The notes under the pieces were generated by a model. The model was not told where the DNA came from and searched no databases. It was given only the letters and a program-made list of their open reading frames with translations. From assembly GCF_964355755.1 (NCBI RefSeq), contig NC_092676.1, positions 29,875,499 to 29,939,498 on the forward strand: a stretch of DNA of 64,000 bases, given 5' to 3'. The DNA comes from Antedon mediterranea (lineage: Eukaryota > Animalia > Echinodermata). How positions within the stretch are numbered: position 1 is the first letter of the stretch; the number at the start of each line of letters is the position of its first letter. Positions 463 to 52,870 of this stretch are shown one piece after another. Position numbers and translations under genes: made by a program.

Positions 463-1444
463 TCAGATTCCACACTACCATTGCTCTTCTTTTTATGAGA
501 GTCAAATACCGCTGGTGAGCTACAGTCGTCAGAGTGTACACCATTAAATACCGCCGGTAAACTACAGTCGTCAGAATTGACCCCATTACTTGTCTCCTCA
601 TCTTGACTCATTGGTTCCTCCTCATCACTAGATATTGATATACACACTAGATGGATGCAATATTAAATATTTACTTGTATGAACAGAAATATGAAGATGC
701 AGATGCTTTTCATGAATTCTTAAATACCTTTTTTGATCAATTTTTAACTTTTACAATGTATGATATTGACACATAATTAGACTAAAAATTAGACTACCAA
801 TTAAACAAACAATGAAAGAAACCTAAAGGAAAGTAAAAAAACATCAGGAAGAACGAAATATTTAAAGGAAAAAACATTGACACCAAACCATCTAGCCCTA
901 AACAGAAAATAAATTGGAAAAAAGGTCTAAATGACAGAAAATGTTTAAGAGAGGAAGAGAGAGTTTTATAATTCCTCACTGACTTCTGGACCAAATTGTA
1001 AATCATTCTGGTGATAACCAGCCTTAAACATGTTCTTTATTTTGAATGAAATCAACTCAAATTAAAACGAAAAAAGGTTGCGAAGTGAAACTAAGTAACA
1101 TATTACCAGGTTGAACAGCTTGTTTTCTAGGCCTCCTTGCTGGGTAGCTCTTTGCTGGTGTCTTCAGCCGATATGATTCTTTCCAATTACTAGAAGATAC
1201 TGTAGATGGAGGTGACTGCCGTTTTACCGGCAAATAAACTGTTTTTTTCTTGTTAACAAAAGATCTCCATGATTCATTGTTTAAAGTTTTCATTTCTTCT
1301 TTTGGCACAGGAATAAGTTTCCGATATTTTTTAACAGAGAAATCACATTTACAGGAGTCACATTTTACAAGACTTCTTGATTTTATTCCACAATGAGCAC
1401 ACAGGGCAAGATTAACGGTATCTGTATCATCATCATCATCATCC
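463..1444 (-). CDS. Partial unidentified gene with two internal coding exons (about 1107..1444 and 463..635). The protein has an acidic tract then Cys-rich C-x2-C...C-x2-C-x-C (zinc-finger-like).
   Basis: Minus-strand ORFs 1057..1476 (DDDDDDTDTVNLALCAHCGIKSRSLVKCDSCKCDFSVKKYRK...) and 417..647 (DEEEPMSQDEETSNGVNSDDCSLPAVF...). The upstream exon has acceptor tttcag|GATGATGAT at 1444 and donor CCTG|gtaata near 1107. The downstream exon has acceptor tatctag|TGATGAG near 635 and donor TTCAG|gtttgt near 463. I recognise no family. Confidence 0.3.
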
Positions 1445-2769: not shown

Positions 2770-3330
2770 CTTGACCTAGTACAGTATATTATGGTACAGT
2801 CGGAGTATATTATGGTACAGTATATTATGGTACAGTATATTATGGTACAGTATATTATGGTACAGTATATTATGGCACAGTATATTATGGTACAGTATAT
2901 TATGGTACAGTATATTATGGCACAGTATATTATGGTACAGTATATTATGGTACAGTATATTATGGTACAGTATATTATGGTACAGTATATTATGGTACAG
3001 TATATTATGGTACAGTATATTATGGTACAGTATATTATGGTACAGTATATTATGGTACAGTATATTATGGTACTGTACAGTATATTATGGTACAGTATAT
3101 TATGGTACAGTATATTATGGTACAGTATATTATGGTACAGTATATTATGGTACAGTATATTATGGTACTGTACAGTATATTATGGTACAGTATATTATGG
3201 TACAGTACAGTATATTATGGTACTGTACAGTATATTATGGTACAGTACAGTATATTATGGTACTGTACAGTATATTATGGTACTGTACAGTATATTATGG
3301 TACTGTACAGTATATTATGGTACAGTGTAT
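2770..3330. repeat. 15-bp minisatellite (GGTACAGTATATTAT)n of about 37 units, with variant units (GGCACAG.., GGTACTGTACAG..) concentrated at the 3' side.
   Basis: Direct reading of the sequence. The six-frame ORFs 2791..3378, 3087..3458 and 3182..3370 are translations of this repeat (MVQYI..). Confidence 0.95.
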
Positions 3331-3686
3331 TATATACCAATACAAATCATTTATATACCTACCGTTTTAGTAAAATAATTGGTTGGTTTGTCTGTGTAAA
3401 GACAGTTATTTCAGCATTTGTGACTGGGGTTTCTGAACTAGTTTGTGTTGTAATGTAGGTCCTCTTCTGGGCTCTTGGTCTAGTGTTTGATAAGTTGTTG
3501 GACTGGTATGGTTTAAAAGAAGCTACTGTGCTGCCATCCACTTTGGGTAAGTTTGTAGACTTTGGTACAGACAGTTTTGGAATTTTACCTAATTGCTTGC
3601 TGTCAAATTCCTTTTGGAGAAGAAAGATTACTATTTTCAGCAATAAAAATCATTTTTTAAAACCAATTTGATATTAAATTTCTAAA

Positions 3687-3832: not shown

Positions 3833-5821
3833 TTTATAAGCTATATATTATACAAATTAGTTATCAAGCAAAATATATGGATAAAACCTACAAACTTCAT
3901 TCAATTTTATGTACAGACATAACTCATATCATCATTATATTAAACTTTAAGAACGAGTACTTACTATAGCACCCTTGTGTTTCCTAGATAATGGTGGTTG
4001 AACTACCACATGGCTTGTTCCTGTTTTCGTAAATAAATTCCCATGTTTTCCCTTATCAACAATGATAATATCACTGCAAAAACAATTGTGGTAACTATAT
4101 ACATATAATATGTTTGTATATGATATATAAAGCCCCAATGATCAACAAATTGTATAAATTGTATACACTTACACAGTATAATTTGACACTCAATTTTAAA
4201 AACATTTTAGAAATTTTACACTGGAATATTACTGATGATATTACATATTTGGTTTGACAGAATTTAGTTTTTTTGTATTTTGCTTTTTTTTACATTTTTT
4301 AAGAACTAATTATTCTGTGTTGAGGGTTAGATGAAGACACAACTTTGCGCCGATTACTAGCTGCATTATGGGAGTATGTTTCCATACATGTTTGATCTAA
4401 AAAAATGAATGGGGTAATAATGTTCAGTGTTTAGAGGTTTCACAACTTTAGGTGCTACCCTATATAAATCCAGGATATTATTATTATTATTATTATTAAT
4501 TAGGTTGTCCAGAATCAATTGTGTTTATATGTTTTTAGATTGGAAATATAACACATACTCATCATCAATTTCTTCTTCTTCTTCTATTTCGTCAGAGGTT
4601 ATGTCAGAATTTCCGTATGTTGTTACGAAGCCTTGTCCTTTACCAGATTCTTCTGCATCTAAAGCTATTTAATATGCAATGATACGATAATGATATACCA
4701 GCAAAGACCATGATGACATGATGTGTGATTTGAAATCCAAATTTGAAACAGCACAATGTATTTTTTTATATATAAAAACCTGTTTCTATTATTGCATTTA
4801 TATATAATTATATATTTATACACATATAAATGGGCGCCTATAAATGTATATTAAAATAACTTTATTTTGCTTATATTGTTTATGTAAACTAAACAGCATT
4901 ACCATATAATATATTATATATTCTATTGATGAAATACAGACTTGTGTCGCCAAGGGCCGGTTTTACAACTCCCTGGTCTAGTCAAGTCTCTAAGCCATTT
5001 TTATATTCCCAGCATGCGCACATGAAACAGGGACGATCTGTCCAACATTTTTTAGCTATGTCTCTCTCATCCCGACCACACGACGCCGTCCATACGTCGT
5101 ACTAGGCCTAGCTCCTGTCCTGCTGTCAACAATTACCGAGTCGGCAGATCAAAACAACAGACAATGGCCTTAATATCTCAATAGCATAAGACTGCATTTA
5201 TAACAATAATTAAGGTTTATTCTTACCAGACAATAGATCGGAATAATTCATTTTCAGTAATGGTGTTTCCAGAACATTTTGAGATGTTTATTTTTGGCTA
5301 GGCCTACCTAATCTCTCTCTCGCGCGCGAGCAACAATTTCCAAAACCTGAAAAAAATCTTCTTCTTTTTTTTCGATTCGCCAATGTGACGTGTGTAGAGG
5401 GCGTTATTGCTGACTCTGCTGCCCCCAACCAAACATACTGTCAACGTAAAAACAGAGGTCAAAGTTTATTTGCATCCAACACATGTTTTTCTTTAACGTC
5501 GGCATTTACATTGGAAGCTGTCTACATTTAGTATTATTTAAATGTATAATCAAGGTATATTGTGGTAAGACTATTCATCAGTTTTGTTAAATCTGCATTA
5601 AAAAATATAAAATCCTAAATGAAATATTTTTTTGTTAATTAGGAAAGGCTAAAAGGGCTAACTAATAAAGTACCCTCCGTCCGTCGTGACCCACCACCAC
5701 CAGCAGGAGTAGGAATGTTCATCCTCGCAGTGTGTGTTAGCACTGAAGTATCTAGTCGGTTCGCCCCTTAATATATTTTCCAAAATCAATACTGTAATTT
5801 GCAGTCCTTGTTTACTTTCAG

Positions 5822-8800
5822 GTCAACGACAACTGACTCATCATTAAGGACTAGTGGTAGTGACAATGACGAGGTCTGATAACAGCTTTATTTGGAAAAT
5901 ATTAAAATGCTAAATTTACTTTTTAATACTTTACTATTCTATTCTATAGATTATTACACAAAAGTAATAATTTTTATTCATTTTGATTTAGATTTATTAA
6001 TATGATTTTTAACATTCTATAATTAAAAAAAAAGACAGTAAGTTAATATATTGTTATGGATATTGTAGTTATTGATGAAATAAATATATAATAAATAATA
6101 TTAAAACATTTAGTTTTATTGTTTTTAGGATGATGTTGATGATGAACAACATAGCAAACTTTTAAAGGCCATCGGATCTCTGGATGGAAAGAAAGGGTTA
6201 GTTTCATACCATTTTTTATTATACATAATTATAAATGCTTGATAAATAATAAAATGAAATTATGTTTTTAAAATTGTTACTAACATTTCTGTGTTTGAAC
6301 CGTTTTAGCTGACCCAAGGTTAAGACTACATCTTTAAGCTCTGTCCACTCTATCTAACTTAATGTGACAAAAAATGTGATGTGGCCATATATGGACACGA
6401 TGATGTCATACCACTACCATATTTGGGCATATCACACTTTTTTTGTCAAACTAGTTTGATAGTTAGTTTTACTGTGTAGATAGAGCTTTAGTTTAATAAT
6501 ACTTTGATGATATAAATAACTTGTTATTATCTTATTTTAGGAAAAGAGTTCAGCAGAGATCAGAGGCTGTTAAGGAAATATCAGAGTTTACCTTAGCCTC
6601 AAAAGATGGCAAATCAAGTCGTGTCAGAGTTCATGAGTTGATGGGGACATTAAAGAGTACAACATCACATTCAGAACTTAAGAAACAACTAATTAATGTT
6701 CAAAGAAAAAGTAAAACCTTGTCAGCTTCATTGCCAAAACATGAAGCATTAAAGGTATGGAAACTATGCCCTAAATACTGTTGAGATTACCTGCCTTGTT
6801 GGCTAGCTAGAACAGACTCTTGTAATAGATTGATACCTGCCTTGTTGGCTAGCTAGAACAGACTCTTGTAATAGATTGATACCTGCCTTGTTGGCTAGCT
6901 AGAACAGACTCTTGTAATAGATTGATACCTGCCTTGTTTCCTAGCTAGAACAGACTCTTGTAATAGATTGATACCTGCCTTGTTGGCTAGCTAGAACAGA
7001 CTCTTGTAATAGATTGATACCTGCCTTGTTGGCTAGCTAGAACAGACTCTTGTAATAGATTGATACCTGCCTTGTTGGCTAGCTAGAACAGACTCTTGTA
7101 ATAGATTGATACCTGCCTTGTTGGCTAGCTAGAACAGACTCTTGTAATAAATTGAAATGAAACAGACGCGGCTTCTATGTACTAACTGCCGTGGAGGCAG
7201 TAACCACTTGCTTTTATTAAGTCAATTACTAATTAGCATACATAGTTACATGTGTGTGTGTATAATCATTACAACTCTAACTAAAACTTTACTTATGTAT
7301 AGGTTGAACGTAAACTTGCTTATGAAAACACCAGTAATGAGCTCTCAAAGTGGCAGCAAGCTGTCCAGGCAAATCGAAGAGCCGAACATCTGTCGTTCCC
7401 TCTCAACCAATCAACCACCAGCCTTCAAACCACGGACACCTTTGTCAAGAAATTTAAGGTGAAATACAAAGAGTATATTTAATTTATCAAAAGAACATTT
7501 CACTAAAGCTCTGTCTACACCATCAAAGTTTATATGACAAAAAAAAGGTGATGTGCCCATGTATGGACACGATGACATCATATCACTACCATATTTGGGC
7601 ACATCGCACTTGTTTTAGTCAAACTAGTTTAATTGTTCGAACACCTTTGTCAAGAAATTGAAGGTGAAATTTAAAAAGTTTATTTAATTTAATAAAAGAG
7701 GATATCACTAAAGCTCTGTCGACGCTATCAAAGTCAAAATAATAAAAAAAATCAGACTTTTTAGTCAAACTAGTTTAGTAGTGTAGACAGAGCTTAACAC
7801 ATGTAGCATACATTTGAATAGTAAATTGTTACTAATTGTGTTCACATTTCAAATTGTTATCTTTTTTTAACTTCAGCCTGCAACACCACTTGAGGAGGAA
7901 ATCTATACGTTGTTACATGGCAGTAAGCACATGGAACGACCTGACAAAGAATTTACACAAGCAGAAGAAGAAGCCCTGAAGGCTATGAGTCTAGAGGAGG
8001 TATTTGTTAAACATCTTTAAAATATTATAGATGCATGGCAGGATATGCTGGGTGAAACTTGGCTTATTGTATGTTGCCCAGTTTTGACTACATCATGAAT
8101 AAATTAGCCTGACTGAAAATAAAAATGTTCTATTAAAAAAAACTATTATCTGTTATATGTGCCATCAAATGTTACTGTAGTATGAACTACAGGTATGTAT
8201 GACTTAATTTATGTCTACACTATCAAACTTTATGTGACATGATCACTACCATATTTGGGCATATCACTACCATATTTGGGCATATCACTACCATATTTGG
8301 GCACATCACTACCATATTTGGGCACATCACACTTTTTTTTGTCAAACTAGTTTGTTAGTGTAGACATAGCTTTACAGTATGTTATATGTATTTATATATA
8401 TTTTTTTCAAAAGGCAAAAGCTAGGCGAGCAGAACTACAGAAGGCAAGAGCTTTACAGTCTTACTACGAGTCAAAGTGTAAACGACAGAAAAAGATCAAA
8501 AGTAAAAAGTAAGCATATCAAAAGAAATAATGTTTAGAATGATAAATAATGTAATTCTCATTGTAAAGAGCTAGTGTTGTACATTTTTTGGCTGTTTTGA
8601 TTTTTAGCTCCATTGATATCCAGCCACTGATACCCACAGCATTGTCATTTTTTCAGTAATTTGCCTTTGGATTCGTATTGTGTATATATATTTATCGACA
8701 GAATGTCTGTTTTGACCATTACTGTACATCTTTACTTCTTGTTAGGTTCCATCGTATTCAAAAGAAAGCAAAAGCAAAAGAGGATATTAAAAAGATGCAA

Positions 8801-11163
8801 GAGGTGATGGAGAATGATCCTGAGGCAGCAAACGAAATGATGACAAAGATTGACAAAACGAGAGCACAGGTATAAAACACTTTATCATTACAATTCAACA
8901 ATATGTAAGGCCAACTTGAATAGCAAAAGCTGATTTAAGGCCAATTTACACAGACGAAAAAAGGCGTAGCTTGGCCCATATAGAATATGTATTTATTCTG
9001 AGCGGAAACCGCCCGTCCGCTCCACGTTGTGGGTAAATGGTCATAAGGAATAACATAGATTTTATATTTTTATTACTGTTACCGCTCGTCTGTGTAAATT
9101 GACCTTTATTTTGGTCTTATATGTCATGTTTGTTAATAAAGTTTCTATATTATTGTACGAGAGTGACAATAAAGTATTTATACATACATTAAATTACAAT
9201 TATCATACCTTTTCAATTGCAACTACTATGTGCCTATACCTTCTCATGGCAAAATAAATAGTAAACATTCAACATTTGTATACTACGGTAAAGAGCGCTT
9301 TATAAATGGTCGATATTATTATTATTATATTTGTATAGTGTCAATAACGTAGTGAATTGTAATAATTTGTATTTTATTTCTCTCATAAAAGGAACGTGTT
9401 AGTCTGAAGCATAGAAACACTGGCAAATGGGCAAAGAGTACTGTTCGCTTCGGTAAATACAATCTACAGGTATGATGATTTCATTTATATTTTATTTGTT
9501 AAAAATAATTTCTATATCAATCTGCTATTTCTATATTATCCATATTTTAATTCTGAGCTGTTGAATGTTGATAGGCTAGAGAGCAGATTCAACAACAGTT
9601 ACAGAAGAGCAGAGACCTGACCCAAAAAATTGCAGAGATCAACAAGAGCGATGAAGAGGATCAAGAAGAGGGCTTGGAGGGAGAAGAAGGTTTGGCGCCA
9701 TCATTGACAGATATCAATAATCCATGGTTTAATGCATCGGCTAAAAATCTGACAAAAGAGGAGTCCAAGACAACGTCAAAGAGCGCTAAGGATCATGTTC
9801 GTATATCCGCACTTGAGGCTGTAACTGCTCAACAAGTTGATGACAGTGATTCTGAAGATGATGACGCTCCAGAAATTGTCACACGTCACATGTTAGAGGG
9901 CGTATCAAATGCTGACTTACTAGAGACTCCTGTTGATGATCAGGAGTTGTTAAGCGAAGGAGTAAATCGCAAACAGACTCTTGAGGATTTTGAATTCACT
10001 GGTTCTGATGAAGAGACTTTACCAGAGGTAAATAACAGCAAGGTCATACACGATTCTAAGGAGGATAGTACAACAGATAAAAGGGGAAACATAAAAGATA
10101 TTCATGTCAATCCTATGAAGGTATTCACCATCAAACCACGAGAAATAAAATGTCTTGAACCAGATATTGTTGTTGGCGATTTTGAAAAGGAAGATAGACC
10201 AGACAAGCACCTGATGAACATACAAGAGGCGTTTGCAGATGATGATGTTGTTGAAGATTTCCAGCAAGACAAAAAGAGAAAGATTGATGAGAGTACACCT
10301 AAGGACATTGACCTTACACTACCAGGATGGGGTGACTGGGGAGGAACTGGGGTCAAGCCATCAAAAAGGAAAAAGAAAAGGTAAGAACATTAGTTTAGTT
10401 GTTTATGAAAAAATAATTCATGATTACAGAGGACATTGCATACTGTACATATATTATTTTATATTATACCAATTCTCTGTTAACAGATTCATAATTAAAG
10501 CGCCACCTGCTGCTCCACGTCAGGACCGAAAACTAGCTCATGTGATCATCAACGAGAAACGAAATAAATCTGTCGCCATGCATCAGGTAAATATTCAAAT
10601 CTGCTTTTGCAATTATTAGTTAAGTTAATTATAGCAGTTAAATATTTCTTACAAAAAACGCCGCTCATCTCATGGTAACTACAGTCTTCGTGCATCTCAA
10701 TATTTATCAGTAAATGTTTTCATAGACTCTCTTTTCCATGACGTACTTTGGGGTGTGCGCATGCCCAGTCCGAGTTTCTAAATACCCATTTTTTCAGCCG
10801 TAGTAAACTACGGTCTCCTAATGCTCCATTCTCTTGAATATAACTGCCTAAAGGAGTGGCGCAAAAACTTTACAATGTGGTAAATTTATTTTTTAAATTT
10901 TCTTTATTTTGCAGGTGAATAATTTACCCTTTCCGTTTAATTCAGCTCAACAATTTGAATCACATATTCGAGCACCGGTAGGAAACACATGGAATACTGA
11001 AGCTGTCTTCAAGAAATTAACAAAGCCCAAAATAAAAACCCAAATGGGGGCAATAATTGAACCTTTATCGGAAGCAGATGCTTTCAAAGATACAGTTAGT
11101 ATTGAGGCTAATAACAAAGAAAAAACAAATAAATCTAAAAGGAAAAAGCATTTTAAGAAATAA
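5822..11163 (+). CDS. UTP14: U3 snoRNP protein UTP14 homologue (UTP14A/C family). Twelve coding exons are resolved; the first coding exon with the ATG lies upstream and was not found.
   Basis: Exons (1-based, + strand): 5822..5873, 6129..6196, 6541..6754, 7303..7458, 7877..7999, 8414..8508, 8746..8869, 9392..9469, 9575..10380, 10487..10586, 10915..11163 (stop TAA 11161-11163). All junctions are GT..AG with consistent reading phase. The translation aligns along its length with human UTP14A as recalled from memory: HSKLLKAIGSLDGKKGKRVQQRSEA vs QKLLEAISSLDGKNRRKLAERSEA; ALKAMSLEE; ARALQSYYE..KKIKSKK; SLKHRNTGKWAKS; DIDLTLPGWGDWGGTGVKPSKRKKKRFIIKAPP..VIINEKRN; VGNTWNTEAVFKKLTKPK. It agrees with ORF-track frames 6521..6784, 8678..8875, 9674..10384 and 10909..11163. 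Confidence 0.85.
6348..6486. mobile_element. MITE, same family, in a UTP14 intron.
   Basis: gctctgtccactctatctaac...gtcaaactagtttgatagttag..gtgtagatagagc. Confidence 0.65.
6786..7150. repeat. 46-bp minisatellite x about 8 (tacctgccttgttggctagctagaacagactcttgtaatagattga) in a UTP14 intron.
   Basis: Direct reading. One unit has ggc replaced by tcc (gtttcctagctag). Confidence 0.95.
7507..7793. mobile_element. Two adjacent partial/short MITE copies of the same family (7507..about 7640 and 7713..7793) in a UTP14 intron.
   Basis: gctctgtctacaccatcaaag... and gctctgtcgacgctatcaaag...gtcaaactagtttagtagtgtagacagagc. Confidence 0.6.
8212..8370. mobile_element. MITE, same family, carrying an internal 18-bp microsatellite (cactaccatatttgggcaca x4).
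   Basis: atgtctacactatcaaac...gtcaaactagtttgttagtgtagacatagc. Confidence 0.7.
9575..10380 (+). CDS. UTP14: UTP14 large acidic central exon (806 nt).
   Basis: Acceptor gatag|GCTAGAGAG at 9574/9575 and donor AAAAG|gtaaga at 10380/10381. Contains ORF 9674..10384. Encodes AREQIQQQLQKSRDLTQK...DIDLTLPGWGDWGGTGVKPSKRKKK. Confidence 0.85.
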
Positions 11164-21332: not shown

Positions 21333-24300
21333 TCACGTACTGCTCTCTCCCGACGCCGTGCTTAATGATCGTCGTTGTCTTTGTAAATACATAGAATTAA
21401 CCAAGGTTCGCGTCGACGTTCCGGTCGGTAAACGCAATCTGGTATCTATGGGTGCTGTATCGTCTACTAATGGCTTAACATATCGTATAGCATAAATCTT
21501 AATTACAAATATACAAATTAAAACAACCCAGCAATTTAATATAAGCGCACTGGCTATGTATATACATTTCGTAAAAAGTTCTTTTTCATCAGTTACAAAA
21601 TACGGTGGAAGAAACGCCAGCAGTATGACGACTGTAGTGAAAGAACAGAAACTTAAAAATCTAGATTCGTAATAGTTATCGGGAAGGCGACGAGCCTTAA
21701 ACACAGACGCACAGCAAACAAGGATGAAGACGAAATTGTAGGCTAGACTGGTGATCACTTCGTTTATTTGGATGTTACACGCAAGCTCGATTCTTGGTGA
21801 GTCTCCCAAGACTTTGCGAGGAAGTACGTCTGGTGGATACAACAGCAACCAAACACTGGATATTATAACCTGGAAATAAATATTACAAAATTTCAGAATT
21901 AGTTGGTTAGATCAGGGAGTTGTAATTACAACTCCCTGGGTAGATCATTAATTGAAGGTTTGCATGGCGAAATCAATATGTTAATATAAAGTTTGCGGTA
22001 CAGCCCTACATCTTGTTCTGCAAAGAACTGCTAAAGTTCCTCGACGTTTCGATTGTGCTCTAGAGCAACAGCGATCTACAGTACATCACCAGATCATTGA
22101 GTGACATTAATTATAACACGAAAGTGTAACTTCTTTTATTATTGAAATTTCAGGAAAAGGGTTCTTGTTTATTAATATTTCTTATCCATGCAAAACATAA
22201 ATAATTGGTTTAATACCTGTATAGAAACAACAATCAGTAAGATTCCAAGTTGTTTCGGTCGTTGGATTAGTTTTGGATTTTCTGTTGAATCTGTAGCAAA
22301 TGCAACCGAAAATATTTTCTGAAGTCTAATACTCTTTAGAGCCATTGATGAATACATTAGGCAGCCTCCGATGGCGGGTAGAAGCCTTGCCGCCGCACAA
22401 ACAGTCTCACTGGGTTTAACAGCAAACGTTATTGTAGCTACCAACACTATTGTCTCACCAAATAAAATGAGATAATTTAGAAGGGGCTCAGAAGTTTGAA
22501 GAATCTGCTCCTTTCGGTAGAAAATGAAGAATATGAGTACGATTAAAATGCCTACAAGTCCGATCGATGCCGTTATAAGAATCAGAGAACCAAGATGGCT
22601 TCCCCAACTGACATAAACTTCCTCCAGTACAAGACATTCCATATGCGTGTTGTCAGGACCAGTTGACCCGTTACATTTCCAGCATTCCTTGTCATTATCA
22701 GGATCTACAATTGTGTCGTCAATACATGCTTTACATTCCCAACAACATCTCACTCTTTCGTAAATCAATACAGTTTGAAATCCGGCTGGACATGTCTCAC
22801 TACATTGGGATTGTGGGATCGACCCGTTTATCGATGATTTCACCGACCAAGTAATGTCATCATTAAAATCAGAGAAGCCGTCTGTAGTAGTCCATGTTCC
22901 CACAGGGTAAGCGCGTAACTTCCCAACTACGGCATCACGTTGGAAATAACTCATCCTGTAACGCCCCTGGATGTCTCCGTGTGAATCGAACTCTATGCGC
23001 CCGTTAACAAGACTGTCAAAAGATGTTCTTCGTAATTCTTCCAGCAAGATGTCACCTGGCACCTGTTGCATTATTTCAACACATTTGTTGTTGGTCGGTT
23101 TAGTATCGTGACAAAGTGAGCTTTGTATGCTGTGCAGTGCGTAAGCGAACGCGTATACGCTATCCATCACTAAGGTATCGTGTGAATCAGTGTCGTCCTC
23201 ATCAATGCATGACGTCATTGAGCAATTTTTTTCGTAATACTCAGAAAACCAAGGATTGTTTGACGTTAATGGAGTAGTTGAGATAAACGATAAATCGAAA
23301 GCCCGTAATCGTTCTGAATACGGTACCATCGTGAACGATCCTTCTGCTGCAGCTTCGTGTTCTACAATGCCTTTAACTCCAGCATTCCCAATGGCGTCAC
23401 TTGCGATCCATATAAAAACACCAGTGGCATTGAGACGCTCTACAGCATCAAATACAGCGTTGGCCGTTTCTAAGTCTAAGAACAATACCACCGCCACTGC
23501 ACCTCTGTCTAAGAGTATTTGTACTATCTGCTTCATGTTACTATCAACTGATACAGCTTCTTCGACTGCTAAACATATTTGATCTGCTGATTGTTTCTGG
23601 AACTCGCTGTAGCCATTGCGCCCGTAACTGTCATCAGAGTACAGAATAGAGACGTATGTCCAGTTGAAGTGGAGAACCAGATCAATCATGGCAGTCACCT
23701 ACGAAAAATCAAATATTAAGGCAAAATTAAAACAAACACTAACGAGTGTAGAATGTTTCCATTTATAAAGATTTGTTTCAACTAAGACGCAGCGCAAGGA
23801 CGACGTAAGCGCAAGGATGACGTAAGCGCAAGGATGACGTAAGCGCAAGGCACAAGCACAATTAATTAAAGTGTACAAAATATTGAAAGAAGAGCAAATA
23901 AAATGTGTAATATGTAAAGTATAATTATACGCGCTAAAATCGACTTACCTGGAATCTATCAGGCGGTACAGTCCTAAGAAAATACTCATACTTAATCTTG
24001 TCGCTAAGTTCATCACTGGTTGACAGGTAGCTAATCTGAGGAACGTTGAATAGACCCAAAGTGGTGGCTGCCTGAATACTGCTACTACTCCTCTGAGCAC
24101 CAATCACACCAGAAATATTACGGAATTGTGTACAATCTGTTGGTGGTGGAGCTATACAACTCCCAACACATGTCTCTTGTTCGTTTACATGTTCCTGATC
24201 TAGCACAAAGTTAACACTTTCCCCCAAAGCTACCGCATCATAGTAACATGTATCTCTGATATCAAATCCTAGTTTTATTCCAGGTAACATTTTTAAGTCT

Positions 24301-24539
24301 TTGTTTATTTTATCAACAGCGTACACTAATGCCTCGACTCGTTTGATGTATGGAACGGCTAAAATGCCTTCACATTCACCACTCGTCTCGTTGTATTCAT
24401 GAACTGGCATCAACGCCCCAAGAATCAAGTCACCGTCTACAAAATATCTATCTGTTGAAGATGATCTTGCCAAGCAGAAGAGAAGCACCAAGTTGAAAAC
24501 GTTCATCAACATATATTTAGGCATGGAAGATTGAAACAT
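21333..24539 (-). CDS. Class C GPCR (metabotropic-glutamate/calcium-sensing-receptor-like). It has a signal peptide, an ANF-receptor-type ligand-binding domain, a 9-Cys domain and a 7TM_3 region. Three coding exons.
   Basis: Exons (minus strand): 23949..24539 (start MFQSSMPKYMLMNVFNLVLLFCLA...), 22217..23698, 21333..21869 (stop at 21333). Junctions are CCAG|gtaagt...ttttcgtag|GTGACT and ATACAG|gtatta...tttccag|GTTATA, all phase 0. Motifs TVPPDRFQ|VTAMIDLVLHFNWTYVSILYSDDSYG are typical of the mGluR Venus-flytrap lobe-2 region. The Cys-rich domain is CSETCPAGFQTVLIYERVRCCWECKACIDD...CWKCNG. The seven hydrophobic helices include TM4 split by the second intron (LGILLIVVSIQ|VIISSVWLLLYPP). Confidence 0.8.
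22217..23698 (-). CDS. Class C GPCR large exon (Venus-flytrap C-lobe, Cys-rich domain, TM1 to TM4).
   Basis: Part of ORF 22172..23698. A donor on the minus strand at 22217/22216 (ATACAG|gtatta) precedes the in-frame stop of the raw ORF. Continuing into the 21869 acceptor restores a full 7TM. Confidence 0.75.
23793..23850. repeat. (gacgtaagcgcaagga)x4 microsatellite in GPCR intron 1.
   Basis: Direct reading. Confidence 0.9.
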
Positions 24540-45922: not shown

Positions 45923-47731
45923 TTACTCACCAGAAGAATACAGGTCAACTGGTCGGATCCTTCCATCTTTTCCATATTCGAATAGACAGTTTTTGTTTAT
46001 TGCGTAACCTACACCTTTATGTCGATAATCTGGATCCGCCGATGTCAAACCAGTGGTTGGGGGATGGAACGCCTGAGGAGTAGTGCAGTGTGGGCTTAGT
46101 TTGGGACCAATGTGAGAATAATTGATTGGAGAACTTGTTGAACTCTGAGCTGTGGCCGAACTTGAAAGGACAGTTTTTCGTTTCTTTGTGCTTAGATCAT
46201 GGGCAGCTGTTGTGCTTAGATCATGGGCACCTGTCGTGCTTAGATCAAGTGGTTCCTCGTCATTTGATGGTCGTTTTTGTCCGTGCTGCTGTGAGCTGCT
46301 GAAATTGTAATAATGCATTGGATATGGTGTTCTGGTCATTACGGGTATCGGTAGCGGTTGTGTAGTAGGCCTACTTCCGGCGGGCATCATGGGAACATGA
46401 GAGGGATACGACGTGTGGGTGTAAATATTATGTCTGCTTACTGGAAGAGGCGTCTTCGGTTGTCTACAAAACCTTTGTACAATGTGTTGGTTGGCAAAGA
46501 TTGGAGGATACAGTGAAGATTGCGGATGAGGTACGTTTCCAACTACTTGGTTTTTCCGATTTGCCAAAGGTGTCGGCAGGGGAATTATGTCTGGTGTATT
46601 ATAGTGGGAGTACGCAACTGGTTTGTAAATATCTTGTACAGCTTGTGACAGTGCGAAAGGAGATGGTAGATGGCTCACTGGACTACCATTGTTTCCAAAC
46701 TCTTGGCTTAGGCCTACTGGAATTGGTATCTGCTGTATTGGCGAATCATCAACGCTTTGAGGAATTGTGTCGGATGACGTCACTCTGTGGTTGAACTGTA
46801 CTTGGTAAGTATCTTGACTAACGTCTCCAGATTGTCTGTTTATACATTGGTTTACTGGAGTTGTCATTTCTGGGTTGACAGTTTTGCCGCCAACAGCACT
46901 GGACAAAGCGACAGGAAACGGTTTACAGGGAGAGTCCTCGACGATTTGGAGTGGACTCTCTGGGCTGGCCACTCTTTGTGGTGAATGTTGTAATGGCGAC
47001 TCTGCAGTGCGATCTTCTGTATCATTTTGGAAGGACGCGACTGTACATGGTGTCTGTCCTCTCCTTACGGAATAATTACTATCACCACCATCACTCACTG
47101 CAAGATCTCTGTTATTGTATTCCAGTTTCTTTTGGAAAGCCATCAGCTGCTGAGGAAATGAACTATCAACAGTTTCAATAACTTCTCGTAAATATATCTG
47201 ATAGCGTATACGTAATTCAATGGTGTTCTTCTCGGTATTGTCAAAATGTTTACCATCGAAATTCAGAACCCAAAAGTTATCCTTTCCATGTGGTTTATCT
47301 GGCCGACGTAGGATCTTTTTGAAACAATCATTGCAGCTCAAGTTATGCCGAACACTGTTCTTCCAACCGGTGTATTCACCTCGAAGAAAATAGAAAGCGT
47401 TCGACATAAAATCAATGATATCTTTAAAGGTCATCATGATTTTTGGGTTTAAGTCAATTGACAAAATTATCATCTCGATGTATGAAAATGGAGAGTTGAA
47501 ATATCGCATTGTGTCAGACTTTCGCTGTTTTTTGTTTAATGTTAACGGTATGGCCGGTGACATGTATGTATCGGTTGGGTCAGAGGTCATGTCATCCGGT
47601 TCTAGTTTGACATAGACGTTGTCCGAGCTGCTATTCTCACATTTTTCCAATTTAACAGATTGAAGAGGTTGATCGCAGACAGTTGAATCCGGAGAGGTTA
47701 CCGCGCTTAATTCTTTCCTTACGCCAGACAT
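45923..47731 (-). CDS. Forkhead-box transcription factor, FoxN-like (FoxN1/4 or FoxN2/3 type). Apparently intronless, 602 aa.
   Basis: Single ORF 45923..47731. The forkhead domain is NSPFSYIEMIILSIDLNPKIMMTFKDIIDFMSNAFYFLRGEYTGWKNSVRHNLSCNDCFKKILRRPDKPHGKDNFWVLNFD. GWKNSVRHNLS-N-CF is the FoxN-subfamily recognition-helix signature. The remainder is low-complexity and Ser/Pro/Gln-rich, as is typical of transactivation regions. A 21-bp coding repeat gives DLSTTGAHDLSTTAAHDLST near the C-terminus. Confidence 0.8.
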   Translation of the reverse strand: MSGVRKELSAVTSPDSTVCDQPLQSVKLEKCENSSSDNVYVKLEPDDMTSDPTDTYMSPAIPLTLNKKQRKSDTMRYFNSPFSYIEMIILSIDLNPKIMMTFKDIIDFMSNAFYFLRGEYTGWKNSVRHNLSCNDCFKKILRRPDKPHGKDNFWVLNFDGKHFDNTEKNTIELRIRYQIYLREVIETVDSSFPQQLMAFQKKLEYNNRDLAVSDGGDSNYSVRRGQTPCTVASFQNDTEDRTAESPLQHSPQRVASPESPLQIVEDSPCKPFPVALSSAVGGKTVNPEMTTPVNQCINRQSGDVSQDTYQVQFNHRVTSSDTIPQSVDDSPIQQIPIPVGLSQEFGNNGSPVSHLPSPFALSQAVQDIYKPVAYSHYNTPDIIPLPTPLANRKNQVVGNVPHPQSSLYPPIFANQHIVQRFCRQPKTPLPVSRHNIYTHTSYPSHVPMMPAGSRPTTQPLPIPVMTRTPYPMHYYNFSSSQQHGQKRPSNDEEPLDLSTTGAHDLSTTAAHDLSTKKRKTVLSSSATAQSSTSSPINYSHIGPKLSPHCTTPQAFHPPTTGLTSADPDYRHKGVGYAINKNCLFEYGKDGRIRPVDLYSSGE

Positions 47732-48790: not shown

Positions 48791-49396
48791 TTTATGCGAC
48801 TATTTTAATGACGGCATCCATACCTGGGCAAAGTACAATTTGTTACTAAAGCAGTGACTTGCAGCTCAATTAATTGTGCGATATATGCCTAATAATTGCA
48901 ACAGTAAAAGCTAGCACTAGATATGGTAACACTTGTGTGTGTATATATATATATATTTGACACAGTACAATATAACAAATTAATTGCTGCTACAAGTAAT
49001 TACCTATTAAGCCTACCTATATACGGAACATCAAACAGATCGGTTTGCTGGCTATCGTAATAATGACTGTTTACGTTTGGTATCAATGGTTTAAAAGCAG
49101 ACGACAGATATGCTGATTTGAATACATGTGATTTAGTCTAGTATGGTATGCTAATTAGCATATTTAGTTTATGTTAACCAACATAATGAAACGTACAGAT
49201 ACCAATCGGGAATTTAAAGTGACGTAGTAATGAATTAAGTTATTTACCGTACTTACTGTTATAATCTTATTTATTTAAATCTAAATTTAGTGTACTTAAG
49301 TCAATGTGAATAATAATATCAAAATTGTAGCATTATATTTGCGTATGCCTATAATTATATTATTAGTAATTAATATTGTAAATATTTTAATTAATT

Positions 49397-52300
49397 CTAA
49401 AGTTCAATATGTCTTTTCATGTCAAAATACTGATTGTTGTTTTCGAATTGAATGCCAACATTCTCGGCAAATTTCTTATCACTGTCACTGAAGTCATCAG
49501 GTCGACCAGCCGCATCGCCGACATAAACAGCGTTTTCTTTGTCGATTGTCTTGAATTGGTTTAAAGTACAGCTATAATAATCCCACATGCCCGTATCAGG
49601 TTTTCTATACTTGTTCTTAGTCGTGGCTGCTAACACGAACATTGGTACATCAAGGTCTGACGTGATCTTTTCCACTTTAGCCATCCACTCATCTTTATCT
49701 TGAGCACCAGATTCGATGCCGTTCTGGTTGCTCATAATCACATTATTAATGTTGTGATAGAGGTTGTCTTGTATGATTGATTTGACATTTGGAGATGTGA
49801 AAACCCAGTCGTGTTCATTTTGAGGATATGGTTTACCACTTTTTGTCTTGATAATAGTGCCATCCAGGTCGAATGAAGCCACCTGTTCATTTGAGTGAAC
49901 TCCTTTTGTTTCATAATACAACAGTCCATCTGAACGTTCAATCCACCATCCTGATTGGTCACTGAGAGGCGGGAATTGTCTAGCAGTTCGGATACCAGAC
50001 ATCTGATAAACATCTTCAACCAAGTACGAAGCTACGCCATACCATTCGTCAGCAGAATTTGAAATCATCGAACCAGTTCTAAAGAAGGCGGAAGAAACAC
50101 CCGACTCTCTGGAGACAACTTTTTTTGTTGAGATGTAGTCGGTTACTGGCAAATTAAGTTCTGGTTCTTTATAGATTAGTTCTCTTGCTGTGTCGTCAAC
50201 GTAATTTAGAATAGAAACAAACTCAGGTTGACAGTTCAAAGTGAATCGGTTAGTTGAGCCAGGTTGCCTGCCGTTATCGCCGTTCCATTTACCGACCTTA
50301 CTCCACAAGTCGTCTGGTGAAGCTTGTTTAAAGGACTGGCACCACACCATGTATACATACGGTGACGGTTCATGTTTAGGTGTAGGTTCATTTGATGGAA
50401 GAGTTGCTTCTTTTCTGTTGAAAGAAGGATAGTCTTGGATACCACAGCCGTCAACAATTAAACCAAGTGTCGATTTAGCTGCACTGTCGGCAATTTCACG
50501 TTCATCGAGGGCTTCACTGCAAATGAGAGAAAGTTTGATTATAATCGCTGATGTACCCTTTCCTGTCGGTAGCCAAATTACTTCAACCGTAGCCTTCATA
50601 CACTTTGTGACAGACAACGCCAGTTCTTTTATAGCATCTTTAGGGGACATTGGTATGTTCTCATTAACCGAGATTGATAATTCATTTCTTACTAGTAAAT
50701 TTACGTGCTTAAGATGTTGGTAAATAAGCATGTGAGTAAGTTTCTCTGACATTGCGTAGAGCGTCGCCGCTGGGTTACCGTCGGTCTGAGTTGCAAATGC
50801 AGACGCGTCACACACCCTCAGGTTGGTAACGCCTCTTACTTGAAGAAACTCGTCTAAACACTCCGGCATTTTGCATGTTCCTACTGGATGCAAGGCTGAA
50901 ACAAGCATACCTCTCATCCAAGCGTTTAGTTCGTCATCGGTGTCTACATCGAGCCCCGGTGCCACCTCATCCAACACCAAATCACGTAAACTTTTATGAA
51001 CATTTTCCCCAAAAAACATGTTTCGAAGTATTCGAATTTGATCTCGAACTAACCGAGATACCTTTTCAAATGCGGGCGTTGTGTCGTCATTGAGAGTGTA
51101 GTTCCAGCCATACTCGAGACTAGGTTTGTCAAAGATGTTTGGTGTAGTAGCATTGAGTGAACCTCGATACTCCGGCCATTGGTCAATTATACGAATCGTA
51201 CCTTCGTTTGAACCATCGTCGTTGTCGTCATTAACCGCCTGTGGAAATTCCCCCTCGTATAGATATTCTGTTTGCTCCGAATGAGAAGAGTCAGAGGTAC
51301 ATAGTGGGCCAACTTCGTCAAAAAGCTTCGAGTTGCCCATCACATACAGTTGTACGTCACTCATTTCCTCTGGTACACGAGTATTATTCGATCTGTAGTG
51401 GATAATCCAAGAAAACGGTCCATTAATGCTATCAAGATCCGCTGTTTTATAGATTTCTCCATCGATATTAATTTCTGGTGCTTGAAAGTCGTTTGAATCG
51501 GATCTTAGTTTAAGGACATATGGTACCGAAATATGATCCCATAGATGTTGGCCTACATGTTCGTTGTCGGCAACCTCTTCCACTCCAATTCTTCTTAGGA
51601 GATCCCTGGGCCCTACACCACTTACTTGCAATAAGTGTGGTGTATCAAACGAACCACCACTCACAATCACCTCTTTACTAGCACGTCGGGTACGGATTTT
51701 GTTCGATACTACGTCCAAGTATGCGACGCCAATTGCTTTACCGTTTTCAAACATAATTTTCGTTACAGTAGCAGATGTGTGGAGGTAGGGTTTATTTTGT
51801 TGATCCTTATAATAACCAGTGTAGCTGCTTCCACGACCAGTCTTCGAGGCCCGATTTTGTCTAGCTTCATCTGTAGGGACTTTGTTGTCCAGACGTAATT
51901 TGTACTGTTGGAAAACACTGCAGCTGACTCTGTTGTTCTCGGGACCATTGTAGTCTGCTGCGTATCCTTTCCATGGTTTTGTTGTATCCTCACACAAGTA
52001 TTGCATTTCAAACGGGAATTTTCTAAATGCTTCTTTGATTTGACTGTTGAGTTGCATTGGACCACCTTTACCATGCCATTGTTCACACATGTCGCCAGTT
52101 ATACCCGTTACTTCTTCTGAATCATAGTGACAGTAATGATCTTCTATCTTCTTGTAGTACTTCGAAAATTGGTCGTGTTTCCAGCCGTCTGGCCATAAGT
52201 TCAAAACCGCTGGACTTGCACGTCTAGCAATAGCGCCATATACGCGGGATGTTCCACCGCGTCCTCGAAATCGAGGGATATAGATGTGTCGGGCGTCTTT

Positions 52301-52870
52301 TTTCTTGTTGTAAGGCTTAGCATTCGGGTACGACTGCACGTTTGTACCTAAAGCTGGTTGTGTTAGCCAGAATGGATCGTGAGGTGAGGTGAATTTGTAA
52401 GAATTGGTATACCATTCATCCATTCCACTTTCTTCTGGTCCTCGTTCAAAGACGCATATCTTCCAGTGAGGTATTTCTGCCAACCGACCAGCTACAGCTA
52501 GACCTGCTGTGCCAGCACCGACAATTATAAAATCACACGAATCGTTGTCACTGAGATGCTCATCACCATAACTATGGGTAGAAAACAACAAAATAATTGT
52601 AATTTGAATGTAATGCAATCAAGCTTTAATTCCAAGGAATGTTCATAAGCGCATTCAAATAAGTGTTTGAATTAATCGAAAGTGGTGAGTGAATGTTCGA
52701 CAAAGAGAAACTTTAAAAAGCGGATAGCAATGATTTGTTGAACATGTCGAGAAACAATTCAGGGGTTATATGGACATGGAAAATAATAAAGTACATTAAT
52801 TACTGCATTCAACTTACGTAATTGCTATAAACACCAAGCCGATGAGGATGGGATGATACTTCCACATCAT
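49397..52870 (-). CDS. Two-exon gene encoding a secreted fusion protein of about 1075 aa. The order is signal peptide, GMC (glucose-methanol-choline) FAD oxidoreductase, an unknown segment of about 240 aa, then a PNKP-type HAD-superfamily DNA 3'-phosphatase domain.
   Basis: Exon 1 is 52818..52870 (ATGATGTGG.., MMWKYHPILIGLVFIAIT, donor ATTAC|gtaagt). Exon 2 is 49397..52571 (acceptor ttttctacccatag|T, 3175 nt, no stop until 49397). The first 17 codons of the raw 1073-aa ORF (MHYIQITIILLFSTHS) are intron read-through. GMC evidence: GxGxxG FAD fold DFIIVGAGTAGLAVAGRLAE..ERG immediately after the signal peptide, and the C-terminal active-site region LHPVGTCKMP...NLRVCDASAF..DGNPAAT. Phosphatase evidence: HAD motif I FDLDGTII, the PNKP-like motif II region VIMSNQNGI, motif III RKPDTGMW and motif IV VYVGDAAGR, colinear with the human PNKP phosphatase domain as recalled from memory (FDLDGTLI / VIFTNQMGI / RKPVSGMW / VFVGDAAGR). 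No kinase P-loop follows. Confidence 0.8.

Follow-up and report, generated by a model that had tools for sequence, protein, structure and literature searches.

In the 64,000 nt stretch of Antedon mediterranea contig NC_092676.1 analysed here (the window), a gene made up of two minus-strand exons (52870..52818 and 52571..49397) encodes a fusion protein of 1075 aa that is the same, at every residue, as the NCBI model P0001. Exon 1 (53 nt, ATGATG...ATTAC) matches the N-terminus of P0001 and is followed by a 5' splice donor, GTAAGT, beginning at 52817. The acceptor of exon 2 (...cccatag) lies immediately before the T at 52571, and splicing brings the two exons into one reading frame, yielding ...AIT-YGDEHL, the sequence found in P0001. 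The minus-strand reading frame recorded in the ORF list (49397..52618) is open throughout its 1073 codons, and a tblastn search using P0001 aa 5-1075 matched 52612..49400 with 99% identity. The single uninterrupted exon (49397..52571) and the spliced 53-nt signal-peptide exon proposed in a preliminary description of this DNA are borne out by the sequence and by the identity to P0001, and the fusion is a genuine, conserved, two-exon crinoid gene. Its GC content (43%, compared with ~34% in the flanks) equals that of a neighbouring forkhead exon. The features of the gene are listed in Table 1.

Table 1. Features of the fusion gene, numbered from the first nucleotide of the window
Feature	Position	Strand	Details
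Exon 1	52818..52870	-	Contains start codon 52868..52870 and the greater part of the putative signal peptide (MMWKYHPILIGLVFIAIT...); read from sequence
Intron	52572..52817	-	246 nt, GT...AG, phase 2
Exon 2	49397..52571	-	Remaining coding sequence and TAG stop 49397..49399; ORF list
Divergent GMC FAD-oxidoreductase module	50750..52534	-	P0001 aa 31-625; PF00732 and PF05199
GAGTAG FAD motif (GxGxxG)	52502..52519	-	aa 36-41
Catalytic His579 (HPVGTCKM)	50888..50890	-	Invariant in 16/16 family sequences
Asn617 (DGNP)	50774..50776	-	Invariant in 16/16 family sequences
X1, small beta-alpha-beta-beta-alpha unit	50459..50713	-	P0001 aa ~638-722; predicted, AF2 model
X2, predicted SRPBCC / Bet v 1 / START-like helix-grip ligand-binding domain	49982..50359	-	P0001 aa ~756-881; structure
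PNKP-type HAD (DxDxT) 3'-phosphatase module	49424..49885	-	P0001 aa 914-1067; PNK3P, TIGR01664
Nucleophile Asp919	49868..49870	-	In HAD DxDxT motif
C-terminal HIEL, HXEL-type (KDEL-like) ER-retrieval signal	49400..49411	-	Sequence and comparison of relatives

From the N- to the C-terminus, the protein is predicted to begin with a cleavable signal peptide and to continue with a divergent GMC FAD-oxidoreductase, a small alpha/beta unit and an SRPBCC domain; the PNKP-type HAD 3'-phosphatase follows, and the tetrapeptide HIEL closes the chain. The evidence set out below establishes the gene, its modules, their intact catalytic residues, the joint conservation of the modules and the targeting signals. 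In a Pfam search, GMC_oxred_N, GMC_oxred_C and a full-length PNK3P were found in one frame, and the in-frame fusion of an oxidoreductase to a phosphatase is upheld. The absence of the FHA and kinase domains had also been reported correctly, as neither gave a Pfam match in the fusion protein and the score for the bifunctional PNKP model, TIGR01663, was below its cutoff (135 against 502.8 bits), with only the phosphatase segment matched (model 146-329 of 520).

GMC_oxred_N (PF00732) was matched at aa 29-363 (E 6e-20, 72.4 bits, gathering cutoff 23) and GMC_oxred_C (PF05199) at aa 482-623 (E 2e-18, 67.8 bits, gathering cutoff 24.6). The N-terminal GxGxxG FAD fold is shared with choline oxidase (2JBV), alcohol oxidase (8RPF) and aryl-alcohol oxidase (3FIM), His579 aligns with the HPVGT His of 8RPF, and the catalytic pair of His and Asn is as in choline oxidase. 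However, although both Pfam domains are held in common with GMC oxidoreductases, the likeness is distant. The closest solved relatives, alcohol oxidase and choline oxidase, were recovered at only E ~1e-27, with the similarity in patches separated by large insertions. Scores for the choline dehydrogenase/BetA models TIGR01810 (155 against 732 bits) and NF002550 (194 against 605 bits) were below the cutoffs. The Antedon module belongs to a small subfamily, of which only fusions of this type and close paralogues with GMC alone were encountered, and in the full-length AF2 model, for which the alignment was shallow, the GMC half has a pLDDT of <50.

The preliminary description treated ~240 residues in the middle of the protein as unassignable, but the structure allows an assignment, and a predicted SRPBCC ligand-binding fold lies within them. 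X1 is modelled (AF2 model m7ad858333efc) with a pLDDT mostly of 80-95 and has no family match; in per-module BLAST comparisons its sequence is conserved among animal-type members only. The modelled X2 has the helix-grip fold that defines the SRPBCC superfamily, examples of which (the Bet v 1 and START types included) are XoxI (3CNW), YPO0625 (7TMU), PYL9/PYR1, the polyketide ARO/CYC proteins and CoxG. X2 differs from the superfamily in that it gave no Pfam match at E <= 0.1, and when X was compared, using hhalign, with the PF10604 (Polyketide_cyc2) domains of the family itself, the match was in register but weak (probability 16%, E 0.0016). An HMM cross-match had an iE of 0.033. In a sequence-only search of 1.84 billion representatives, no homologues of region X were found outside the fusion family and, therefore, no function can be inferred from them.

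PNK3P (PF08645) was matched over the full profile (1-161 of 161) at aa 912-1065 (E 4.5e-47, 160 bits against 22), and the DNA 3'-phosphatase model TIGR01664 over 1-166 of 167 with 157.2 bits, which is above the curated cutoff of 107.65. The HAD motifs DLDGT, SNQ, RKP and GDAAGR are present, and D919, D921, S965, K1008 and D1037 vary little or not at all in the family, in which the ligands of phosphate and Mg are invariant. As the motifs of both catalytic centres show little or no variation among the 16 family members compared, both centres look intact, and with no stops in the ORF and the catalytic residues and Cys invariant, the gene is not a pseudogene; the preliminary description was right on both counts. 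Identity to the phosphatase domain of mouse PNKP (3ZVL/1YJ5) is ~45% over 176 aa (E 1e-28), with an ungapped core, and the HAD motifs, Mg and phosphate ligands and pocket residues are shared with the mammalian PNKP structures 3ZVL, 1YJ5 and 3U7E. Relative to a list of PNKP DNA-contact residues, which are template-based predictions (PMC7746193), the pocket residues N218, Q219 and R259 and the aromatic F185 are kept in the fusion-family phosphatases, whereas R224 and K226, basic residues of PNKP that make more distal contacts to DNA, have been lost. A 9-aa basic loop of PNKP is also missing, and just 3 of the 13 animal forms retain F306; together with the loss of R224 and K226, this counts against a nucleotide substrate. 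The Antedon phosphatase differs from PNKP in the loop and in these two residues, as well as in the FHA and kinase domains. Yeast Tpp1 and plant ZDP are stand-alone DNA 3'-phosphatases (PF08645, TIGR01664) and, like PNKP, are nuclear or mitochondrial. In contrast to all three, the Antedon phosphatase lies behind a signal peptide in a Cys-rich, putatively lumenal protein with an ER-retrieval tail, and has an oxidoreductase and an SRPBCC domain as fusion partners. When the PNK3P modules were placed in a crude NJ tree, those of the animal fusions clustered apart from canonical PNKP.

The putative signal peptide was recognized using a hydrophobicity heuristic only, and includes a hydrophobic 11-mer at aa 8 (Kyte-Doolittle 3.03) followed by TYG and then DE. 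The putative cleavage site falls between these, with the small residues T and G at -3 and -1. No internal TM segment was detected in P0001 on the Kyte-Doolittle scale (no internal 19-mer above 1.6). Complete family members have an N-terminal hydrophobic signal, and most rotifer forms have a TM anchor. Sixteen Cys, most of them invariant, were counted, and one sequon is conserved in 11 of 13 sequences. A tetrapeptide of the form [H/K/R]-x-[E/D]-L ends 10 of the 13 animal-type relatives, the tails observed being HIEL, HSEL, HTEL, HNEL, HAEL, KVEL, RQEL and HDDL, and the residues preceding the tail vary. HXEL is the ER-retention motif of the carboxylesterases CES1 (HIEL) and CES2 (HTEL) (PMC6146386). 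These carboxylesterases are unrelated in sequence to the Antedon protein and share with it the signal peptide and the C-terminal HXEL, from which we infer ER residence. Because it ends in HIEL and such tails are found in 10 of 13 animal-type relatives, the Antedon protein is probably ER-luminal, not secreted or lysosomal, and the secreted, extracellular or lysosomal location suggested in the preliminary description is unlikely for the animal forms. However, the tail is missing in three animal-type relatives, in L004 (a further genomic locus with the fusion), in Diplonema and in the protist forms, and ER retention is thus not universal in the family.

The colinear fusion is also present in Anneissia (a crinoid), Amphiura (a brittle star), Mytilus (a mussel), Dendronephthya (an octocoral), Diplonema, bdelloid rotifers and other marine eukaryotes. 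The colinear architecture recurs in >13 independent assemblies, and one relative is on an mRNA-like contig (3454 nt, in which an entire ORF has short sequences on either side and a run of A ends the contig). Hence the architecture is not unique, as it is already in public databases, in several phyla, as 'uncharacterized protein'. It remains the case that no characterised or named protein has the GMC plus PNK3P architecture, the database names being 'uncharacterized' or a generic GMC label, and a literature search for GMC plus PNK3P or SRPBCC plus HAD plus GMC architectures found nothing. The usual model organisms are not among the named family matches, which would explain why the family has been overlooked.

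In rotifers the domain order is permuted (GMC-PNK3P-SRPBCC-X2), and the protist forms are extended (EndoNS-GMC-X-PNK3P-SRPBCC) by an Endonuclease_NS with an intact DRGH motif. The SRPBCC fold is in all members, with two copies in rotifers and protists. In per-module BLAST comparisons, identity falls in parallel across the lineages (GMC, 79 to 38%; X2, 76 to 27-36%; PNK3P, 76 to 27-29%). Since the modules stay joined even though the order is shuffled in rotifers and an Endonuclease_NS is added in protists, they travel together and, as judged from these comparisons, are conserved as one co-evolving unit. The permuted orders point to a functional link between the GMC, SRPBCC and HAD modules, as in a Rosetta-stone case. 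True GMC-only paralogues were also found (L003; P0018, which ends KEEL), indicating that the oxidoreductase can work without the phosphatase. The GMC-only relative P0016 proved genuine. P0078 was rejected as a PNK3P-only relative, as it is part of a full fusion that is split by a frame change. In the crude NJ tree, animals group roughly by taxon, with the crinoids and brittle star apart from an octocoral-like group and the mussel. A coral 'PNK3P' has been listed as a candidate for HGT (PMC4878875), and may or may not be a member of the fusion family.

The difference in GC content between gene and flanks, a coding sequence nearly without introns and the patchy phyletic distribution might be taken to indicate that neighbouring genes were misjoined, in the assembly or in gene prediction, or that the gene is decaying or was recently acquired from a foreign source. 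We consider this very improbable. The frame runs for 1073 codons without a stop, the catalytic residues and 16 Cys are invariant, the GC content is that of the neighbouring forkhead exon, a spliced signal-peptide exon exists, and the animal sequences fall roughly by taxon. A mis-assembly or chimeric gene model was rejected because the same colinear fusion is found in independent assemblies, on the mRNA-like contig and at L004, and the number of such assemblies (>13) excludes the mis-join that the preliminary description had wished to see ruled out.

Our best guess is that the protein works in tandem fashion, dephosphorylating and oxidising a phospho-alcohol that may be a 3'-phosphonucleotide. 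It would stay in the ER lumen as a soluble enzyme, where the HAD phosphatase would remove a phosphate monoester and the GMC module would oxidise an alcohol on the same molecule, the simplest target being the hydroxyl just exposed by the phosphatase. The ligand held by the SRPBCC domain may be the substrate itself or a cofactor, either hydrophobic or a quinone. To this model as a whole, namely a soluble, ER-retained enzyme of the early secretory lumen with phosphatase and GMC modules working in tandem on one substrate, we give slightly better than an even chance. Hexose-6-phosphate dehydrogenase, which is bifunctional and ER-lumenal, provides an analogy, as it also has two catalytic activities in one lumenal polypeptide. 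By homology, the leading substrate class would be nucleotide-type ends phosphorylated at the 3' position, for example a 3'-NMP, a short oligonucleotide with a 3'-P or, like PAP, a 3'-phosphoadenosine compound, because of the ~45% identity to PNKP, the pocket residues kept and the Endonuclease_NS fused in protists. However, we know of no nucleic-acid (DNA) substrate in the ER lumen, and this counts against a nucleotide. Serratia-type nucleases also speak against it, since the ends they leave are 3'-OH and call for no 3'-phosphatase, and the GMC-only paralogues, in which the oxidoreductase can work by itself, weigh against the tandem model. The main alternative substrate would be a hydrophobic phospho-alcohol.

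The fusion is an uncharacterised variant assembled from known modules, and its GMC plus SRPBCC plus PNK3P combination is conserved in lineages that range from protists to echinoderms, molluscs and cnidarians. Otherwise, 3'-phosphatases of the PNKP type are known only from DNA repair in the nucleus or mitochondria, whereas the Antedon one has a putative signal peptide and an ER-retrieval tail. If the modules cooperate, they would represent an unstudied lumenal pathway in which phosphate removal is followed by alcohol oxidation, and the PNK3P fold may gain a new substrate class. What the family offers in practice is a concrete target for enzymology, and no long-standing question is resolved.

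The preliminary description named the processing of 3'-phosphate ends as a possible role, and in a secreted or lysosomal version of this the protein would act outside the cell or in digestive compartments, taking off the 3'-phosphates that nucleases of the DNase II or RNase T2 type leave behind, with the GMC module oxidising the product or providing H2O2. What stands of it is a phosphatase above the DNA 3'-phosphatase equivalog-domain cutoff and ~45% identical to PNKP, and a secreted-type Endonuclease_NS added in protist relatives; the putative signal peptide and the relatives with no ER-retrieval tail are also consistent with it. The DNA ends themselves, however, fit poorly with the loss of the basic contacts to the DNA backbone and with the ER lumen, to which the tails in Antedon and 10 of 13 animal-type relatives point. 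As, in addition, an SRPBCC domain in every lineage is left unexplained and we know of no GMC enzyme that acts on nucleic acids, we consider end-processing outside the ER unlikely.

The SRPBCC domain, present in all members and present twice in rotifers and protists, is accounted for if it binds a hydrophobic phospho-alcohol (a sterol, polyprenol, sphingoid or polyketide phosphate) that the HAD module dephosphorylates and the GMC module oxidises, much as cholesterol oxidase or fatty-alcohol oxidase would; the descent of the phosphatase from PNKP would then be a matter of history only. To our knowledge, every GMC enzyme characterised so far has a small alcohol, a sugar or a sterol as its substrate, and the ER lumen hosts lipid and xenobiotic metabolism, as with the HXEL-tailed carboxylesterases; the lost distal DNA contacts would also be explained. 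Nevertheless, a lipid or other hydrophobic substrate of this kind seems doubtful to us, as the characterised members of PF08645/TIGR01664 that we know of are all DNA 3'-phosphatases, the Antedon module scores above the equivalog cutoff, the residues of the terminal-nucleotide pocket are conserved and the protist nuclease fusion points to nucleic acids.

Compared with the tandem model we prefer, a more specific proposal, which we regard as quite improbable, is that the GMC module replaces the PNKP kinase as partner of the 3'-phosphatase, so that the same nucleotide or nucleic-acid end would be dephosphorylated and a sugar hydroxyl at the terminus (3'-OH or 5'-OH) then oxidised. We know of no described enzyme for flavin-dependent oxidation of nucleic-acid or nucleotide termini. 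If the proposal were true, such termini would undergo flavin-dependent oxidative modification or degradation inside the secretory pathway, and the nuclease-bearing protist versions would be complete machines that cut, dephosphorylate and oxidise.

The Pfam domains GMC_oxred_N, GMC_oxred_C and a complete PNK3P were all recovered in one frame of an uninterrupted minus-strand ORF of 1073 codons, confirming the in-frame fusion of a GMC oxidoreductase with a PNKP-type phosphatase set out in the preliminary description. The 53-nt first exon proposed there was also correct: donor and acceptor fit, and the spliced 1075-aa product shows no differences from the NCBI Antedon mediterranea model, P0001. 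The window is clearly from an animal chromosome. Its GC content is approximately 34 %, with exons near 42 %, and the genes near the fusion include one with a forkhead domain, a class C GPCR and an exon of Utp14.

Features of the fusion gene, its predicted product P0001, the remainder of the window and two related loci
Feature	Position	Strand	Details
Exon 1	52818..52870	-	53 nt; consensus donor AC/GTAAGT at its end
Acceptor	52571	-	cccatag/T; splice restores frame
Uninterrupted ORF	52618..49397	-	
GMC_oxred_N	aa 29-363		Pfam
GMC_oxred_C	aa 482-623		Pfam
X1	aa ~638-722		beta-alpha-beta-beta-alpha domain, AlphaFold2 model
X2	aa ~756-881		helix-grip domain, AlphaFold2 model
PNK3P	aa 912-1065		Pfam, E 4.5e-47, profile positions 1-161 of 161
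AATAAA hexamer	49270..49275	-	~125 nt 3' of fusion-gene stop; candidate polyadenylation signal, of little weight in AT-rich sequence
Forkhead-domain ORF	45923..47731	-	602 aa, E 8e-21; directly downstream of fusion gene
Tandem repeat in forkhead ORF	46186..46247		24-nt unit encoding DLSTT(G/A)AH
ANF_receptor, NCD3G and 7tm_3 blocks	21333..24539	-	three ORF blocks together resembling a class C (metabotropic glutamate or taste-type) GPCR
Utp14 (U3 snoRNP protein)	9674..10384	+	large exon, profile positions 415-641
MVQYI repeats	2791..3378	+	195-aa 'ORF', nearly all repeat; tandem DNA repeat, not a gene
L004, full fusion	5503..8813 of ENA ERZ25067548 contig		animal genome
L003, GMC-only paralogue	7968..9785 of ENA ERZ25067868 contig		

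Colinear GMC–X–PNK3P proteins, where X is the approximately 240 aa between the enzymatic modules, are predicted in Anneissia japonica (77 % identity), Mytilus galloprovincialis and Dendronephthya gigantea (58 % each), Amphiura filiformis (57 %) and Diplonema papillatum (42 %), and the fusion is also predicted in four bdelloid rotifer species and several further eukaryotic assemblies. The 3454-nt contig encoding protein P0004 looks like an assembled mRNA, because the ORF has short flanks (60 nt before, 154 nt after) and an A-run ends the contig. As the same colinear protein recurs in many independent genomes, and given this contig, a chimeric assembly was ruled out. A pseudogene was also ruled out, since in an alignment of 16 members little or no variation is seen in the GMC catalytic residues His579 and Asn617, in the HAD motifs (D919-L-D921-G-T, S965-N-Q, R-K1008-P and G-D1037-A-A-G) and in most of the 16 cysteines, which bears out the earlier view that the catalytic residues are intact.

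P0078, PNK3P-only at first sight, is the 3' portion of a complete fusion locus that the ORF caller split at a one-base frame change. L004 has a single frame shift in the X1–X2 linker (about 7806-7842), hence two called genes; the shift is an indel of the assembly or else a true frameshift. A possible member of the family is the 'PNK3P domain-containing protein' of a coral (A. digitifera_2036), which has been listed as horizontally acquired from algae (PMC4878875, eLife 2016, coral genomics). P0080, named 'MAG: HAD-IIIA family hydrolase, partial [Ekhidna sp.]' by NCBI, is a 116-aa fragment that shares 71 % identity with the PNK3P module of Antedon and is probably eukaryotic contamination of a bacterial MAG, not a bacterial homologue.

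The order of the modules is signal peptide–GMC–X1–X2–PNK3P in animals, N-terminal membrane anchor–GMC–PNK3P–Polyketide_cyc2–X2 in rotifers (P0025 has a cleavable-looking signal instead) and Endonuclease_NS–GMC–X–PNK3P–Polyketide_cyc2, with the nuclease DRGH motif intact, in protists. Per-module identity to the Antedon protein declines in parallel across these lineages. Co-evolution as one unit with permuted order is a classic signature of functional coupling, and the parallel loss of identity and rearranged order bear that signature here; the predicted proteins show the modules to be inherited together. Close GMC-only paralogues also exist, so the oxidoreductase can act without the other modules. 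They include P0018, ending in KEEL, and the genuine L003 (60 % identity to the GMC module of Antedon), where a real stop follows the GMC domain and no X- or PNK3P-like sequence was found within 8 kb downstream. With 27-29 % identity, the rotifer PNK3P modules (P0022-P0026) diverge much further, and non-canonical motifs occur in some of them; P0022 has DLEAT instead of DLDGT, and a degenerate motif IV. In this lineage, the phosphatase may have been relaxed or have taken on another role.

When 1.84 billion representative proteins were scanned exhaustively with HMMER, X had no matches outside its own family, so sequence alone is uninformative on this region. A focused AlphaFold2 model built on the 16-sequence alignment was confident (pLDDT 84, pTM 0.85) and predicts a small alpha/beta unit, X1, followed by an SRPBCC-like helix-grip domain, X2, giving a putative fold to what had been considered unassignable. 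Weaker results point the same way, namely that the X2 profile cross-hits the additional Pfam-annotated Polyketide_cyc2 domains of rotifer members, and that profile-profile comparison placed X2 and these domains in register, which was not significant alone.

The PNK3P module is approximately 45 % identical to the mouse PNKP phosphatase domain with an ungapped core. Its score of 157 bits exceeds the curated NCBIfam cutoff of 108 for the DNA 3'-phosphatase equivalog domain, and it does not pass the NCBIfam bifunctional PNKP model, because the kinase is missing, in agreement with its initial assignment. When PNKP residues listed in PMC7746193 were mapped onto the fusion family, all catalytic, Mg and phosphate ligands were kept, and every member has the pocket residues N218 and Q219 and an aromatic residue at F185. 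R259, also in the pocket, is present in each animal form and in one of the three protist forms. F306 survives in just 3 of the 13 animal forms. R224 and K226, the distal basic contacts of PNKP, are lost, and the mammalian basic loop is absent. Hence, the terminal 3'-phosphonucleotide pocket looks preserved, in contrast to the extended DNA-binding surface. The GMC module retains the FAD fold and a catalytic His/Asn pair and is highly divergent, with only patchy matches to its best solved relatives, alcohol oxidase and choline oxidase (approximately E 1e-27), and scores far under the choline dehydrogenase family cutoffs.

The Antedon protein ends in HIEL, as does CES1. Among 13 animal-type relatives, 10 have HIEL, HSEL, HTEL, HNEL, HAEL, KVEL, RQEL or HDDL at the C-terminus, preceded by variable residues. 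Microsomal carboxylesterases use HXEL as their KDEL-type signal for ER retrieval (CES1, HIEL; CES2, HTEL) (PMC6146386). Consistent with a soluble protein of the lumen are the hydrophobic N-terminal signal of P0001, the lack of an internal membrane span, 16 conserved cysteines and an N-glycosylation sequon kept in 11 of 13 sequences. The best reading is thus of a predicted soluble resident of the ER lumen, and not of the secreted enzyme originally deduced from the signal peptide. Three animal-type relatives, L004 (C-terminus ...KHRKFLTN) and the protist forms lack the tail, indicating that retention is lineage-dependent.

One predicted lumenal polypeptide therefore carries both catalytic modules, intact, together with a ligand-binding module. 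Both enzymes would act in sequence on one substrate, the phosphatase stripping a phosphomonoester and the flavoenzyme oxidising an alcohol, while the SRPBCC domain would present the substrate or a hydrophobic/quinone cofactor. Because of the PNKP homology and the protist nuclease fusion, the leading candidates are 3'-phosphorylated nucleotide-type ends, namely 3'-NMPs, short 3'-P oligonucleotides and lumenal 3'-phosphoadenosine compounds, of which PAP is our own suggestion. In favour of the main alternative, a hydrophobic phospho-alcohol, are the SRPBCC domain, the reactions that known GMC enzymes catalyse and the predicted ER location; that homology and nuclease fusion count against it. The HXEL tail and the loss of contacts to the DNA backbone weaken the case for the extracellular or lysosomal processing of DNA ends envisaged in the preliminary description, which may still hold for lineages without the tail.

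The combination of GMC, PNK3P and SRPBCC was not mentioned in the literature searched, and database matches are named only 'uncharacterized protein', 'unnamed protein product' or by generic GMC labels. The architecture therefore appears new as a described protein, in line with the preliminary description, but predicted proteins with it occur in many genomes, and the fusion is not categorically new, as every module belongs to a known superfamily. What is unusual is that a PNKP-type phosphatase is placed in the secretory pathway and, in distantly related eukaryotes, is joined to both an oxidoreductase and an SRPBCC domain.
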